Shown here piece by piece: positions 11,624 through 19,243 of a stretch of DNA of 47,717 nt. The position numbers were made by a program, and so were the translations under genes. Origin of the DNA: a virus. Under the pieces are notes generated by a model. That model ran no database searches. It had not been told where the DNA came from and saw only the letters and a list, made by a program, of their open reading frames with translations. Location: UHGV virus genome UHGV-0097968. One strand, written 5' to 3'. Every line of letters begins with the position of its first letter. The stretch's first letter is position 1.

Positions 11624-12775
11624 ATGGCATGGACTGGATTTGGTGGTCAATGGAATAACGGTGTGCATTCTGGCGGTGATGATTCTGGCAGTATAGGCGG
11701 TGGGGGCATAAAACTTGACGGCAAAGGGAATCCTGTAGGTACTCGTGCGCCGACTGCTGAGGAGATCGCATCACAATGGAATAGCTTTGGAGGTAGTCAG
11801 ATTAAACCCAGTGATGTATCGAACATCAGACCGGATGGTGAAGGTACTTATCAGGCTAACATTGCAGGTAATTACCACGTTGTAAGTTCGCAGGGCGCGA
11901 ATACCCCATTTGCTTCGGAACGTAGCAACGTTGCGGCAGGTTTTAGTGGTGGTGTGGGACCAACGCCTGATGGAAGGGGTAACAATAGTGCACCCAGCAA
12001 TCCAAAGGCTGAGGCCGAGGCAAAGAAATGGATTGAAACAGTCAAGGCTGTTCGGGCTGGTAATATCCCCTACGGTTATGTTCTTAACGACGGCAAGGTA
12101 GGCGTAAACGTGCCTCAATATGTTGAACGCCGCAAAGGTCGTGGCGACACATATACCGTTCGGGGTAAAGATTTGTTTGTTGTTTCGCCTGAACTGACAA
12201 AAGCGTATCAGGATGGTCTTGCGGAACGTGCTGAGATTCTGGACGCCGTCAAATTTACGTCTGATTTCTATAAAGACCTTGCAGGTAAATTTGGACAGCA
12301 TAACGCGAACATCGCAAAGGAACTGGCGGAGGCTGCAAAAGGCAAGAAGATTCGTAACAGCAAAGATGCACTGGCGGCGGTGGATAAATTTAATAACCGA
12401 CTGAGTAAAAAGTATGGAGCCAAAGACCTTGAGGCAGTTGCCAGGGCTTTGGAATCGGTTAACCGGGATGCAATGGCGAAGAATTTGTCTAAATTTGGTA
12501 AGGCATTTGGTGTCGCAAGTTATGCTGTCGATGCTTACAATGTTCTTTACATTGAATTTCCGAAAGCTATTCGTACCAAAAACTATCGCCCAATGCTTGT
12601 TAAGTTGGAGGCAATTCTTCTTGGTGCTGATGCTGGTATTGTTGCTGCGTGGGCATTTAGTGCGCTTCTGGCAACGCCGATGGGTATTCTGACGTTTGCG
12701 CTTATAATGGCATTGCTAAGTGCGATGATTAATGAAAAACGCATTGAGGAACTGAATAAGTTCTTAGGGATTTAA
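11624..12775 (+). CDS. Colicin E1-family pore-forming bacteriocin (short, 383 aa; Gly-rich N-terminal domain, C-terminal channel-forming domain)
   Basis: Gly-rich N-terminus MAWTGFGGQWNNGVHSGGDDSGSIGGGG; C-terminal domain with GKKIRN, KFGKAFGVAS, RTKNYRPMLVKLEAILLGADAGIVAAWAFSALLATPMGILTFALIMALLSAMINEKRIEELNKFLGI (hydrophobic hairpin and terminal NKFxGI) matching my recollection of colicin E1/Ia-type pore domains; SOS box in promoter; GAAGGAAG RBS. Confidence 0.85.
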   Translation: MAWTGFGGQWNNGVHSGGDDSGSIGGGGIKLDGKGNPVGTRAPTAEEIASQWNSFGGSQIKPSDVSNIRPDGEGTYQANIAGNYHVVSSQGANTPFASERSNVAAGFSGGVGPTPDGRGNNSAPSNPKAEAEAKKWIETVKAVRAGNIPYGYVLNDGKVGVNVPQYVERRKGRGDTYTVRGKDLFVVSPELTKAYQDGLAERAEILDAVKFTSDFYKDLAGKFGQHNANIAKELAEAAKGKKIRNSKDALAAVDKFNNRLSKKYGAKDLEAVARALESVNRDAMAKNLSKFGKAFGVASYAVDAYNVLYIEFPKAIRTKNYRPMLVKLEAILLGADAGIVAAWAFSALLATPMGILTFALIMALLSAMINEKRIEELNKFLGI

Positions 12776-14510: not shown

Positions 14511-14541
14511 CAGGTTGAATGTTTGGCGCGGTTATACTCTA

Positions 14542-14618
14542 TTTGCGCTTAAAAAGGTATTTAGTCACAACCAGCACGAGGCCGAATACTCTGTCAAAGT
14601 ACCGCCCATGTAAAACTG
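14542..14618 (-). pseudogene. Frameshifted 3' fragment homologous to the C-terminal end of the 18140-18745 membrane protein gene
   Basis: 77 bp with about 90% identity by eye to 18144-18220; minus-strand translation starts MGGTLTE then loses frame through a 1-bp deletion. Confidence 0.5.
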
Positions 14619-14687
14619 TAACGTATGTACTTGATGACTAAGCTGGCACCAGGTTAACACCAGGCGCCAGCTTGAAGGAAACTTCAG

Positions 14688-15611
14688 TTATTGGTTTCTG
14701 AGGAAAGCGATTCTTGAAAGGGTCATTTGCGTCTGGCAGTCGAGCATTTTCTTGACTTCAGCATCTGTTCCCTGCATTGAAACTTTACCGCACATAGCAT
14801 CCTTAGTTTTGATCCACTGACGCTGAGAAGGCAGCAAATCTTTTTTCTTCGCCGGGGTTAACTTGCTCCAGACGGTACTCAAATCAGAGTCGGCATTCGC
14901 AAATGCCATTCGGGACTGATCAAGGCTGTCAGCTTTTTGTGGCTGAAGTTGTGCCTGTCTCTCTATTTGCTTCTCCGCCTCATACTTAGCCTGTTCCTGC
15001 GCCCTGAGTTGCACCTGTTGTTCCGCTTCAATTTGGCTCTGTTGGGCATCCTTAGCCTGCTGGATTTTCTGCTGCTCAACGATCGGGTTGATAATAGAAA
15101 GTGATGTCAGTAAAGCGGCGCCCACTGATATCGGATTATCAGAAGAGGTTTTTACAAAAACGTTTTTCTGATCGTCGGTCGCCTGCACGGTGTAGGTGAT
15201 ACGTTTGGAAAAGGCGTTTGCGTTGTTCTCCAAAAACAGGCTTTCCATTTGCTTGTCGAGATTACGATTAAAATTCTTTCTGTAAGCATCTGAAAGCTGG
15301 ACGTACTCGTTCGCAGGTAGAGTCATCGTCACGGTCCCTTCACAAGTTTTCATTGTGCTGCCCGTGTCACTTGATGTTGTGGAGATTTCAGAGACGGCTA
15401 GTTTGATCTTGTCCAGTGTGCTTCGTTTGGTCTGATTAGTGACATCAGGGTATTTATCGACCTGTTCAGAGAGTCCTTCATAAGCAGATTTTTTTAATAA
15501 ATCCATGAGAGCTGATTGGGTCATTTCCGAAGAACAACCGATCTCATCTTTTTTGTTATCACAGCCTGTAAGGGCAATGGCGAGTAAGAGTACTGAGTAT
15601 TTTAATCTCAT
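14688..15611 (-). CDS. Lipoprotein with C-terminal DUF1311/LprI-like domain
   Basis: 307 aa; signal peptide with lipobox LTGC; Gln-rich coiled-coil middle; C-terminal motif WSKLTPAKKKDLLPSQRQWIKTKDAMC...C typical of DUF1311 by recollection. Confidence 0.75.
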   Translation of the reverse strand: MRLKYSVLLLAIALTGCDNKKDEIGCSSEMTQSALMDLLKKSAYEGLSEQVDKYPDVTNQTKRSTLDKIKLAVSEISTTSSDTGSTMKTCEGTVTMTLPANEYVQLSDAYRKNFNRNLDKQMESLFLENNANAFSKRITYTVQATDDQKNVFVKTSSDNPISVGAALLTSLSIINPIVEQQKIQQAKDAQQSQIEAEQQVQLRAQEQAKYEAEKQIERQAQLQPQKADSLDQSRMAFANADSDLSTVWSKLTPAKKKDLLPSQRQWIKTKDAMCGKVSMQGTDAEVKKMLDCQTQMTLSRIAFLRNQ

Positions 15612-16237
15612 GAATTCCCTTTAGAGTAAGGATTGGTTTTTAAGACGCGGTCTGTAATCAGTTCCGAGAGCTACAGTAAACAACGCTGAGCACTGAACGC
15701 ATCACAGGCAAGGTAAAAGGTGATATCGGCAAAGGCTGTGAAACCTTTAATTCAACAGATGGGAACGGTATGCGCAGGATCCTGTAACGACGCTCCCAAA
15801 ACCGGAAACCTGTAAGGCATGTTTTCGCTGCTGAACTTAATATACGAACCTGCACTATCATGAACATATTTTTTATCGTTATACCCCGAGTGATTGTGCC
15901 CGGCAATGGATAGTGTCCTGGAGGAACTATTTCTACTGTAAAAGGTAGACATTTAATTTCAGTGTGGAATTATTCCCTGCTGTTAATAACCATGGCTCTA
16001 TATGGCACCGAGCGGACTAGTTAACTTGCCTGAAAGCCGCTATGAGTGAGGAGCGAATATTGGCACGAGAGGATACCTGAACCATTTTTTGGACATGCGC
16101 TAAAAGCGAATGATTAGTTTTATCGGAATATTTACAGTATACTTACAAGGCAAGCTTGGCGTGCCGTCTTGGGCGAGATTGCTTAAATTATTTTGTGGAT
16201 ATATCATTCAAACAAAAGATAATAAAATGAGGTTGTT

Positions 16238-16435
16238 ATGTCATATATTCGCGTAGAGAAAGATGGCCTTCAGTATGAAGCAGAATACTTCCGTGAAGAG
16301 GATATGGTCACAGTCTTTGGGGTTAGAGGAGGGCATTCCAGCGTGGTTCTAAATGGAATGACAGAAGTCGCGGCTGCTCGTACTGCGTTACGAAATCTTA
16401 TTAGAGAAAATCAGGTTGATCCTCTAACTGATTAA
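16238..16435 (+). CDS. Hypothetical small protein
   Basis: 65-aa ORF with GAGG RBS; AT-rich surroundings. Confidence 0.45.
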   Translation: MSYIRVEKDGLQYEAEYFREEDMVTVFGVRGGHSSVVLNGMTEVAAARTALRNLIRENQVDPLTD

Positions 16436-16639
16436 AAATAAGCCATCTTAACTGAGAGCATATTTTGATATAATTTAGATTAAATCTATTTTGAAGGTTA
16501 GTTTGGGATGAGAAGATTACATCAAAACCGTTATTACTAGCAATAAGTTGTGTAAATCAAATAATACATAATCATGTGGTAACATATACTAAGCGTAGTA
16601 AAGTTTTTATATATTCCTGTAACTTTGTGAGAAACTTCC

Positions 16640-17305
16640 ATGAAAGCCGACAACTTAAGAATTATAGAGAATGGCAAATATGTTTTCGATATGTTCTTGG
16701 ATACTGGTGAATTTTACTATACAAGTCATGCCTTTGACACGAGAGAAGATGCAAAAAGCTGGATGGAAGAATGGCAGATTTGGGCAAATAATGTATCGAG
16801 TGGGAAAGTAAGTAGTATTTATTATATTTTACAAGTGCCTGATACTTGGGCCGGTTCTTCAGATAAAAATAACCCTTACTCGGGACTTTATGTGAAAATA
16901 GGGCGTTCCAATAATGTGCTAAAAAGGTTGTCTAACCTGCAGACAGGTGCATTTGGTCAATTAATATTACACGCTTTGGAACCTGGTGGTTCAGAAAAAG
17001 AAAACTATCTTCATGAAAAATTTAGCAACGAAAGACGTCAAGGTGAATGGTTTGTTTGTACTAAGGAACTTACCAAGCATATATTTACAACATGGTTTAA
17101 AAACAAAATGCTCCCACCAGAACATCAAATAAAAATAATGCAGCTCGCAGAAAGAATAGGTATTTATTCGCATGTTCATACACTAATGGGGGGGAAGCCA
17201 GACTTAGTAAACCCATCTATTAGTGAACCTTGGGAATGCGAAAAATATGTTTTGGTTGATATGATTTATAGCTCTTTAGCAAAGCAAGTTAATCATAAAA
17301 AATAA
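16640..17305 (+). CDS. T5orf172 (GIY-YIG-like) domain protein with unassigned N-terminal domain
   Basis: 221 aa; GLYVKIGRSNNVLKRLSNLQTG ... ENYLHEKFSNERRQGEWF matches the T5orf172/MUG113 signature (KIG..., LQTG, LH..F...R..GEWF) by recollection; AT-rich region. Confidence 0.7.
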   Translation: MKADNLRIIENGKYVFDMFLDTGEFYYTSHAFDTREDAKSWMEEWQIWANNVSSGKVSSIYYILQVPDTWAGSSDKNNPYSGLYVKIGRSNNVLKRLSNLQTGAFGQLILHALEPGGSEKENYLHEKFSNERRQGEWFVCTKELTKHIFTTWFKNKMLPPEHQIKIMQLAERIGIYSHVHTLMGGKPDLVNPSISEPWECEKYVLVDMIYSSLAKQVNHKK

Positions 17306-17625
17306 AGTGTTACATTTTAACTATACAATTATTGATTCACTAATGAAGAGGTGATTTAGACGTATGAAGTTTTAATAAGCTCCAAGAATATTTTGTCATA
17401 AATGGGTTAAAGAGTTATATAATAATATCTGCTTCTGGAATACAGCAGACAAGCACCTGCAGATAAAGGTCTGCTGAGAGCGAGAAGCGGATCATACGTT
17501 GGAAGTTGTTTAGGCAAATACGTTATAAACGTATTTGATTAAATTTACTTGGATCATAGTCTTCAATAACGCTTTATTATATTGTTTTTCATGCAGCAAA
17601 CAGGTTTACAGGTAGGTAATAAGCT

Positions 17626-18030
17626 ATGAGTGGATGGAAAGAGTCTTTTACATTAGCAGAACAGATACAATTAGCATTAAATTTAGGTTATGAGGCTGTA
17701 CCAGATGAAGAGGCATATACTGGGGCATACTTCATTAAAGGTGGTAAGAAGTGGATCTTTAACATCATCGGTCTCAAAAAGACATTGAATATATCTTCAG
17801 ATGATGAACTAAGAGGGCAGGATTATGATGTTGATATGTATTTCGAAATTCGCCAAAATTGGGCACAATACCAAGATATGATCTTTGGAAGCGAAGATAT
17901 CACTCCTTCACCTAAAAATGAACTTACTTCAATTTACCATGACCTGCAGGTAACGGATGAACCCAGGGAAATGGTGTATCTTTCTGATGGGATGTGGCTG
18001 GATCCCAACGGACGAATTGTACAACGATAG
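17626..18030 (+). CDS. Hypothetical protein
   Basis: 134-aa ORF in AT-rich accessory region. Confidence 0.45.
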   Translation: MSGWKESFTLAEQIQLALNLGYEAVPDEEAYTGAYFIKGGKKWIFNIIGLKKTLNISSDDELRGQDYDVDMYFEIRQNWAQYQDMIFGSEDITPSPKNELTSIYHDLQVTDEPREMVYLSDGMWLDPNGRIVQR

Positions 18031-18139
18031 CACTCGAACACACTCAGTAATCGTCTATAAGGCCAGCACTTGTTACTTGGTCATTTGGGGTTGCTGGTCT
18101 TCTCCATTAAATCGACTAAAGTCTGTTCCATAGAGAGAG

Positions 18140-18745
18140 TTACTTGCGTTTAAAAAGGTATTTTGTCACGACCAGCACGAGGCCGAATACCTCTGTCAAA
18201 GTACCGCCCATGTACAACTGGAGCGTTAAGTCTTTAAATACAAGCCATTCAGCACCAGTGGCAAAAAATACACCATTCATTATCAAAAGCTGGCAAGCAA
18301 GGATAATAAGGAACCATTTGCCATAGCGTTTTTTTAGATCGATTTCAGCTTCAAAATCTTTGTTGTTGAGTTGTTTGCGCTCATGCTCAGTATCAAGTGA
18401 ATTCACCTGTTTCACAGATGTGAACTCGGTCAAGATTTTACTCTCAGTACGGGTGACTTGTTGAGAGGGGGTAGGAATTGGAATTCTTTTGATTGACGCA
18501 GCTACAGCCATTTTGCGAGCTTCGGCAGCTCTTTTTCTGGCTATTCCGTGAATACGGGCAGACGGTTTTTTTGGAGCGTGCGAAACCTTTGTCTGAGGTG
18601 AAGTTTCGTCAGGAGACTGAACCGGAGTTTCATCCTCCTCCGGCTCAACCTCTTCTGCTAACTGACGGTGTAGGTTGAGGGAATCCTTCAGTCGGCGTGC
18701 AACTTCCTGTTTGAAACGGCTGTTAAAATCGTCATCCGATGGCAT
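18140..18745 (-). CDS. Membrane protein (disordered charged N-terminal region, two C-terminal TM helices), co-operonic with ImmA-like peptidase
   Basis: 201 aa; hydrophobic segments WFLIILACQLLIMNGVFFATGA and GTLTEVFGLVLVVTKYL; 9-bp gap to upstream peptidase gene; 3' end duplicated at 14542-14618. Confidence 0.65.
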   Translation of the reverse strand: MPSDDDFNSRFKQEVARRLKDSLNLHRQLAEEVEPEEDETPVQSPDETSPQTKVSHAPKKPSARIHGIARKRAAEARKMAVAASIKRIPIPTPSQQVTRTESKILTEFTSVKQVNSLDTEHERKQLNNKDFEAEIDLKKRYGKWFLIILACQLLIMNGVFFATGAEWLVFKDLTLQLYMGGTLTEVFGLVLVVTKYLFKRK

Positions 18746-18754
18746 TCTAAAGCG

Positions 18755-19243
18755 TTACCCCAACCTCAAGTTCTTTAAACGATAAGTCATCGCATCGTCA
18801 GATACGCCAAAATGATGCGCCATTATATAACTTGGTTGGCCGTCAGCGTGCAGTTTTCTGACCTCATCTACCGGCATCAGAAGTTCTGCTGCGAACTTGT
18901 TCGCAAAAATTTCATCAGGATGCGTTCCGGCGCTTGCGGTTTCGCCACGTAAATCAACGTACTCATATTCATCGCTATGCGATGCTTGCCGGGCGATGTA
19001 ATGCCCCAACTCATGCCCACATGAAAAACGTTGACGAACTTTGTTGTCATCACTGTTTAGAAAGATCGCTGGATCTTGATCTTTTTGTTTAATCAGTGCG
19101 CCAGAAACTTTCCCAGGAAGATCGGTAATAAAAACATCTAATCCCATGTCGTGAGCAATTTTCGCTGGATCAACAGGGAAACCACGCCCGCACCAGAACG
19201 TGTCCAGCACTCGCCGGGCGTGCTCTCTTGGGTTGGTAGCCAT
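18755..19243 (-). CDS. ImmA/IrrE-family zinc metallopeptidase (COG2856-like)
   Basis: 162 aa; HEXXH motif in RQRFSCGHELGHYIA; downstream EIFANKFAAELLMPVDEV and FGVSDDAMTYRLKNL typical of ImmA/IrrE. Confidence 0.8.
   Translation of the reverse strand: MATNPREHARRVLDTFWCGRGFPVDPAKIAHDMGLDVFITDLPGKVSGALIKQKDQDPAIFLNSDDNKVRQRFSCGHELGHYIARQASHSDEYEYVDLRGETASAGTHPDEIFANKFAAELLMPVDEVRKLHADGQPSYIMAHHFGVSDDAMTYRLKNLRLG

Follow-up and report, generated by a model that had tools for sequence, protein, structure and literature searches.

A rare prophage-borne T5orf172 nuclease with a YegP-like domain is carried as cassette cargo and may act against foreign DNA

The subject of this analysis is a gene in the UHGV virus genome UHGV-0097968, a stretch of 47,717 nucleotides referred to here as the window. 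The gene encodes a 221-residue protein of the GIY-YIG superfamily, T5orf172/MUG113 branch, an assignment on which profile matches, fold and motif residues all agree, and it is cargo, lying outside the core programme of the phage. Our tentative preference is to see in the product a stand-alone nuclease that would restrict foreign DNA, with a YegP-like domain that may provide both dimerisation and target sensing. This preference draws on precedents in the literature together with the autonomy of the gene, its cargo status and its neighbours. The gene is already generically annotated (RefSeq labels an identical protein ‘GIY-YIG nuclease family protein’), and what is new is an architectural variant of a known nuclease family.

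The open reading frame (ORF) starts with ATG and contains both motifs quoted in an earlier note on this DNA, which had predicted a T5orf172 (GIY-YIG-like) domain protein. Pfam searches bear that prediction out, with two matches above the curated cut-offs: MUG113 (PF13455) at residues 85–147 (E = 6.4e-10, 39.9 bits, cut-off 22.3) and T5orf172 (PF10544) at residues 74–152 (E = 4.4e-7, 30.8 bits, cut-off 20). A search of NCBIfam with the protein gave no match, a PDB sequence-profile search returned chance matches to ribosomal proteins only, and PADLOC-DB 2.0 contained no significant defence model for it, the top model being PDC-S57 (E 0.0037, 14.9 bits, core only). Among phage records, megablast of the segment found no match and tblastn found core-level matches only, at 41–43% identity (for example HK106). 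The protein also aligns to positions 99–333 of the 434-position PHROG profile phrog_8130 (3.6e-78), a limit which implies that some phage members, or the profile alignment itself, extend by about 100 positions on each side.

An AlphaFold2 (AF2) model of the protein has a predicted local distance difference test (pLDDT) score of 90.4 and a predicted template modelling (pTM) score of 0.85. The layout proposed earlier needs revision. The nuclease core had been placed in the C-terminal half, behind roughly 80 unassigned residues. It is in fact central, with the first strand SIYYILQV at residues 58–66, KIG at 86–88 and GEWF at 135–138, and in the model it matches the GIY-YIG alpha/beta fold. The N-terminal part comprises about 52 residues and is predicted to adopt the three-strand plus helix fold of YegP/UPF0339 (DUF1508); at the sequence level, DUF1508 (PF07411) was not matched in Pfam (E ≤ 0.1) or in the PDB sequence-profile search. 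The C-terminal module, conserved over residues ~156–215, is modelled well (pLDDT 83–94 up to about residue 210) and has no counterpart in Pfam, PDB or BFVD.

The family alignment comprises 26 sequences, down to 39% identity, and contains 37 invariant columns. Core residues among them are Y61 and Y62 in strand 1, K86, I87 and G88 in strand 2, R96 in helix 1, E121 and H125 in helix 2, R132 and R133, and G135, E136, W137 and F138, while the C-terminal module contributes L158, P159, H162, N191, P192, W198 and D207. The candidate catalytic residues Y61, Y62, R96, E121 and E136 are thus conserved in all 26. From topology and a 15-residue spacing, E121 probably corresponds to E75 of I-TevI and E136 to N90; aligning the family with hhalign to the catalytic domain of I-TevI gave a probability of 0.2 and no register. 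Because E121 and E136 are both invariant, the predicted GIY-YIG active site is intact whichever glutamate matches I-TevI E75. The ratio of nonsynonymous to synonymous substitution rates (dN/dS) is 0.12–0.19 between lineages that share the surrounding DNA unit, and the nuclease is under strong purifying selection.

These residues also bear on the idea that the protein is a domesticated, non-cutting DNA-binding regulator like CapR in PLE. T5orf172 entered the literature as a DNA-binding domain, and its relative CapR has been domesticated (PMC10448857), but the Tyr, Arg and Glu motif residues are invariant family-wide, although domesticated forms would be free to lose them. We regard a regulatory role of this kind as remote.

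Full-length relatives of 213–242 residues, down to 39–45% identity, occur in Enterobacter, Morganella, Klebsiella, Vibrio, Photobacterium and Thiohalophilus, and relatives at 42–51% identity in cyanobacteria, Dehalococcoidia, Acidobacteria and Planctomycetes. A profile search run exhaustively against 1.84 billion cluster representatives returned 29,644 proteins at E ≤ 1e-3 and 12 at E ≤ 1e-30. Beyond the top ~15 proteins, alignments span only profile positions ~81–155, which represent the core, and the C-terminal module is confined to this family. The three-part architecture therefore marks a small, tight and rare family. It adds a rare combination (YegP-like domain, T5orf172 core and private C-terminal module) to the T5orf172 proteins, which have so far been studied only as zinc-finger phage homing endonucleases and one anti-satellite enzyme. 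One protein, P0086, was considered as a case of the C-terminal module on another scaffold; its N-terminal part is transposase-like by eye, and we read it as a family member disrupted by an insertion sequence (IS).

The window is a lambdoid prophage, with tRNA-Gly/Cys/Leu at 152–454 and an integrase-sized ORF at 585–1631. The gene order of an annotated relative runs from replication genes through a variable region to Q and the lysis and head genes, and the nuclease gene belongs to that variable region. Its accessory slot is flanked by an LprI gene and by a pair of genes for ImmA and a 201-residue protein. The AT-rich character and long gaps described earlier are evident here: G + C content is 0.372 (16001–17000) and 0.348 (17001–18000), against about 0.45–0.55 in most of the window, and the gaps flanking the gene measure 204 nt (16436–16639) and 320 nt (17306–17625); the H-NS silencing that was suggested along with them is speculative. 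Identical DNA (15900–18200) is found in 18 of 5,426 complete E. coli genomes. Related prophages carry other alleles of the slot, namely HNH_2, LEM-3-like GIY-YIG and other genes in SE11, L26 and CFSAN061769, and in SK1144 one 232-residue gene between the same LprI and 201-residue/ImmA backbone genes. The SE11 allele (locus L002, 6857–8979, minus strand) encodes an HNH_2 protein of 411 residues and a LEM-3-like GIY-YIG protein of 268 residues. Low prevalence, alternative alleles in related prophages and the presence of the same 1.35-kb DNA at 84–86% identity in unrelated contexts in other genera together identify the gene as acquired accessory cargo, as had been suspected.

Its location nevertheless allows for a phage nuclease of lytic growth, expressed by readthrough of the early-right operon, that degrades host DNA, acts on replication or recombination intermediates or destroys satellites. 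The gene is co-directional with the replication-to-Q transcription unit and has no convincing promoter of its own, a promoter and terminator scan around it giving counts no higher than in shuffled sequence, and Odn offers a precedent for a phage-encoded T5orf172 anti-satellite nuclease (PMC8263062). However, most other contexts of the gene (integrons, islands, islets and a filamentous prophage) lie outside lytic-phage operons, so that a lambdoid lytic role would leave its conservation unexplained. We consider this alternative distinctly unlikely.

The DNA that moves with the gene has defined ends. Sequence from 16039/16142 to 17491 recurs with unrelated flanks in four loci of other genera (Enterobacter, Morganella and Citrobacter), and the unit is also present on three viral contigs. 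Homology of all four loci stops at the same place, 17491–17495, just after ...CGGAYATT. This is the end of an imperfect inverted repeat, the right junction site, with outer arms AATATCTGCTTCT / AGAAGCGGATCAT and inner arms CAGCAGAC / GTCTGCTG; a mismatched segment separates the two stems and the centre is variable. Folded as single-stranded DNA, the site gives −14 kcal/mol (z −3.3). A degenerate copy, the left junction site, stands at the left edge of the slot, where it contains the homology breakpoint with SE11-type prophages (16012); its equivalent in SK1144 scores 30 bits.

The junction-site model was built from nine copies, and with its structure line out of register it worked mainly as a sequence profile. 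Counted in the correct register, 81% of cells are paired, compared with 38–46% when the register is slid; covariation was not above a shuffle control for column composition. The dyad symmetry is real, and a folded strand and duplex binding arms are both compatible with it. A plasmid and 51 further E. coli genomes contain related sites (~78% identity), one per genome. They separate unrelated cargo: a HEPN pair plus an ankyrin gene near Shedu, DJ-1/PfpI plus DinB, and Lit plus TerB-N. A model search found co-oriented sites bracketing single cassettes in SE11, Citrobacter, SK1144, locus L016 and six viral contigs, and the cassettes bounded by junction sites carry Lit, HEPN and AbiV genes. Across these loci the sites mark cassettes of 0.8–1.8 kb in prophages, genomic islands, a plasmid and bare chromosomal loci, with one orientation per locus.

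Classical attC identity was ruled out for the enterobacterial site, which has no AAC...GTT core and ends of the AAT...ATT type. Rfam gave no match on 15600–18300, and a literature search on the junction site or on integron-borne GIY-YIG defence cassettes found nothing relevant. Two insertion sequences lie close to such sites or to the gene: on the plasmid (locus L039, 3700–4782), a weak junction site follows the end of an IS110-family transposase gene by about 20 nt, and in Citrobacter (locus L015, 6708–7921) an IS3-family element is inserted 42 nt past the nuclease stop codon. A 232-residue ORF inside the Citrobacter unit proved to be an IS3-family transposase and is unrelated to the 232-residue cargo of SK1144.

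There is no recombinase in or near the unit, and no integron integrase or attI at the loci inspected. The missing recombinase, the fixed ends of the unit at a conserved, hairpin-capable site and an N-terminal fold linked to single-strand binding would suit a nuclease that nicks or binds the junction repeat and drives movement of the unit. Yet the same sites bound many cassettes that lack a T5orf172 gene and are far more widespread than the gene, while the distant homologues either travel in classical attC cassettes or lack a junction site. A role in mobility is very unlikely on this evidence; since so many junction-site cassettes do without any T5orf172 gene, the nuclease is cargo of the cassette system and not its engine.

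Two small ORFs beside the nuclease gene, orf65 and orf134, had been pointed out earlier. Both exist as conserved genes, but neither is a functional partner of the nuclease, each being independent cargo. In close relatives orf65 is co-transferred with the nuclease gene (dN/dS 0.09–0.23). It is missing from distant nuclease loci, including single-gene integron cassettes, and in loci devoid of T5orf172 genes it precedes an FRG gene in Providencia and follows CTD6/MC2 systems in E. coli and Xenorhabdus. Homologues in P4/CP4-57-like islands (L053, 5001–5198; L055, 4065–4265; L056–L058, 5001–5198) stand immediately after or before conflict systems, composed of CTD6, MC2 and a 608-residue protein or of FRG, CTD1, MComp1 and AAA_15. 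Such a distribution points to orf65 as a generic small gene, accessory or regulatory, of cargo regions. The second gene, orf134, is conserved at 66–99% in Proteus, Providencia, Serratia, Citrobacter and Yersinia and absent from all other contexts of the mobile unit; the Proteus copy sits at the edge of a prophage, where an ApeA gene is close by and T5orf172 genes are absent. A partnership with orf134 was ruled out on these grounds.

The position of orf65 upstream of the nuclease on the unit in all close relatives, and the purifying selection on it, would fit a toxin–antitoxin or addiction pair, with orf65 as the neutralising partner of the nuclease. The two genes are, however, 204–250 nt apart, and their adjacency is not conserved, orf65 being missing at every distant locus and found beside other systems. 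With each gene occurring without the other, orf65 was ruled out as partner or antitoxin, and an addiction pair is extremely unlikely. In V. vulnificus the nuclease gene stands alone between two attC-type superintegron repeats (L007, 7906–8035 and 8707–8833), as it does between attC repeats in V. pacinii (L030, 5860–5948 and 6657–6744). No neighbouring gene was conserved across the contexts inspected. Given these lone attC cassettes and the dispensability of orf65 and orf134, the nuclease is the only constant component and is genetically autonomous.

The main rival to a nuclease against foreign DNA is a free-standing homing endonuclease, which would cut at a specific site in related phage genomes without the gene, repair then copying the gene together with its flanks into the cut. 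Two observations weigh against our preference and for this rival: T5orf172 proteins dominate the putative homing endonucleases of ICP1, T5-like and other phages, where they lie at exchange boundaries (PMC10448857), and related prophages lose homology exactly at the present gene. Homing would also account for the variable presence of the gene, and the HNH and LEM-3-like GIY-YIG genes of the alternative allele, with a second T5orf172 gene in the Enterobacter island, recall ‘HEG islands’. Against this, zinc-finger domains (CapR, DUF723, DUF4397) are present in 200 of 229 (87%) phage T5orf172 homing endonucleases (PMC10448857), whereas our protein gave no Pfam hit to any of the three at E ≤ 0.1 and has only two cysteines (C140 and C200) and no CxxC. 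The gene is not beside essential genes but in an accessory slot here and in integrons, islands and islets elsewhere, and integron cassettes and chromosomal islets offer no homing substrate. Strong purifying selection and conservation across phyla are likewise unlike the usual decay of homing genes. Finally, flanks that are unrelated between contexts, and ends fixed at a junction site common to nuclease-free cassettes, point to site-specific movement in trans. On balance homing is unlikely.

The carriers of the gene bear on a role against foreign DNA. It is cargo of a CP4-57-type island in Enterobacter, lies between icd and a prophage integrase gene at a prophage edge in Morganella, and ends a CTX-like filamentous prophage in Colwellia; elsewhere it is found beside an IS, beside DUF3800 and a helicase, or in bare chromosomal islets. 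In Citrobacter a complete Shango system (SngA/B/C, E down to 7.6e-279) is directly upstream and a Mokosh-like gene downstream, in E. cloacae the gene adjoins an AAA_15 + DUF4435 (PARIS-type) pair, and in Enterobacter genomosp. O the adjacent cassette encodes AbiV. Placement in a defence island is clear in these last three, and most other contexts are uninformative. The Enterobacter island also encodes a second T5orf172 protein, of 268 residues, with a 302-residue partner (L011, 6176–7892, minus strand).

Published systems provide precedents for such a role. Odn of ICP1 is a stand-alone T5orf172 nuclease in which a RepA_N N-terminal domain targets the satellite origin and a conserved Glu is essential (PMC8263062), and fusion of a reader domain to GIY-YIG suffices for restriction (PMC12707154). 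Single DUF1508 domains homodimerise, the dimer resembling the sPC4/Whirly single-strand binders, and binders of this type are proposed N-terminal sensors of the defence nucleases Menshen and Shedu. NixI was considered as a further T5orf172 precedent and dropped, the paper showing HNH/N.

For the nuclease described here, we infer nuclease activity, dimerisation, the nature of the target and a protective role. The N-terminal YegP/DUF1508-like domain would dimerise the protein and, possibly by binding nucleic acid that is single-stranded or structured, would sense the target. The dimer would bring together two GIY-YIG cores, each cutting one strand, and the conserved C-terminal module might add DNA contacts or brace the assembly. 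The target could be a superinfecting phage or a competing mobile element, and the beneficiary either the carrying element or the host. A broader proposal joins the gene to its vehicle: an uncatalogued single-gene effector against phages or mobile elements, whose YegP-like dimer senses single-stranded or hairpin DNA, would ride integron-like but non-integron cassettes with a ~72-nt two-stem site recombined in trans, a traffic that shuffles AbiV, Lit, HEPN and the nuclease among prophages, islands, plasmids and chromosomal sites of Enterobacterales. Taken as a whole, we hold this proposal to be possible but doubtful.

Being a single gene for 221 residues, the nuclease lends itself to a defence or exclusion assay, and through it the widespread but functionless YegP/DUF1508 fold would gain a testable role in dimerisation or nucleic-acid sensing. 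Of the two findings, the junction site was less expected, and it may be more important than the gene. Were it a recombination site, the exchange of small defence cargo between unrelated elements without flanking homology or an integron would be explained, and new cargo genes could be mined with it.

Several features of the slot and its surroundings were noted in passing. On the left (14688–15611, minus strand), a 307-residue protein has an apparent lipoprotein signal and a C-terminal LprI lysozyme-inhibitor domain (3.2e-7); this gene, conserved in hundreds of E. coli prophages, bounds the cargo slot on its left side. On the right (18140–19243, minus strand), an ImmA/IrrE metallopeptidase of 162 residues (PADLOC capP, 1.6e-25) is followed by the 201-residue protein (phrog_5346), the C-terminus of which looks hydrophobic. 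This pair is the right-hand backbone of the slot, in SK1144 too, is transcribed against the early operon and may be a damage-responsive regulated module. A direct repeat of 85–109 nt (92% identity) at 14540–14624 and 18141–18226, extending to about 14517/18118, brackets the LprI gene and the cargo slot. Its second copy is the 3′ end of the 201-residue gene, and the first is a remnant downstream of an ORF6N anti-repressor gene, also present in SE11; the repeat looks like the scar of a module insertion by recombination. Further upstream in the variable region, a 383-residue ORF (11624–12775, plus strand) contains a predicted colicin pore-forming domain (Pfam PF01024, 2.2e-45), and its product would be a prophage-borne, pore-forming bacteriocin-like protein.

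Table 1. Positions of the nuclease gene, its domains, the mobile unit, neighbouring genes and junction sites (window coordinates unless a locus is named).
Feature	Position	Strand	Details
YegP-like / T5orf172 (GIY-YIG) / C-module nuclease gene (predicted)	16640..17305	+	ORF, Pfam, AF2 model, alignment, dN/dS
N-terminal domain, predicted YegP/UPF0339 (DUF1508)-like fold	16640..16795	+	residues ~1-52; three strands and a helix
GIY-YIG/T5orf172 core	16808..17104	+	residues ~57-155; 16-residue insertion (67-82) between beta1 and beta2
Family-specific C-terminal module	17105..17302	+	residues ~156-221; long helix 160-183, extended segments, helix 212-219
Mobile unit	16067..17500	+	orf65, spacer, nuclease gene, 3′ region with junction site
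Right junction site	17415..17500	+	~72-nt imperfect inverted repeat (17424-17495); model score 94.9 bits
Left junction site	15982..16066	+	degenerate copy; 21.2 bits, E 8e-5, filters off
orf65	16238..16435	+	small, conserved, carried on the mobile unit; no obligate partner of the nuclease
orf134	17626..18030	+	independent cargo gene of the same slot, outside the mobile unit
Junction sites in L002	9082-9161, 10790-10868, 11982-12067		
Junction sites in L016	6768-6853, 8301-8379		
Junction site in L037	6992-7077		
Junction sites in L038	6201-6286, 6992-7077		
Junction site in L039	5985-6070		
Junction site in L059	6583-6669		

Among known systems, the closest in design is Odn (Gp88) of ICP1, also a single-polypeptide, stand-alone T5orf172 nuclease on a mobile element with a non-nuclease N-terminal domain (PMC8263062). 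Odn is used against a competing genetic element, and by analogy the prophage nuclease may have a target of the same kind. The two differ in that RepA_N is borrowed from the target, whereas the domain here is YegP/DUF1508-like and accompanied by the extra C-terminal module, and they share no sequence similarity outside the core. The phage homing endonucleases (ICP1 gp53, gp121 and gp130, and those of T5-like phages; PMC10448857) have the same Pfam domain and conserved Arg/Glu, a variable presence and a position at recombination boundaries between related phages. They usually carry at least one zinc-finger domain and adjoin essential genes of lytic phages (PMC10448857), neither of which applies to the prophage nuclease, which occupies an accessory slot and is also found in integrons and chromosomal islets.

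The N-terminal ~52 residues resemble in predicted fold YegP/UPF0339 (DUF1508; PDB 3BID, 6Q2Z, 2K49, 2K8E), members of which described to date are small and either stand-alone or built of tandem repeats; in the present protein one copy is joined to a nuclease. Likewise, Shedu and Menshen NsnA combine an N-terminal sensor with a nuclease effector, DUF1508 and sPC4/Whirly-type domains being among the proposed sensors (PMC12065111), but their nucleases have DUF4263/PD-(D/E)xK folds rather than GIY-YIG, Menshen is a multi-gene system and there is no homology. With the GIY-YIG domains of SLX1/HIGLE and UPF0213 (PDB 6SEH, 7WME, 1YWL) sequence identity is only 10–14%; these comprise eukaryotic, structure-specific repair nucleases and small bacterial proteins, and no accessory domains are shared with them. 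As to the vehicle, the distant Vibrio homologues are true single-gene attC cassettes of integrons. The enterobacterial unit is like an integron cassette in its size, in the two-stem inverted repeat at its 3′ end, the centre of which varies, and in its co-oriented, arrayed sites. It differs in having no AAC...GTT core and no integrase or attI nearby, in carrying cargo in either orientation, and in having its sites in prophages, islands, a plasmid and chromosomal loci.

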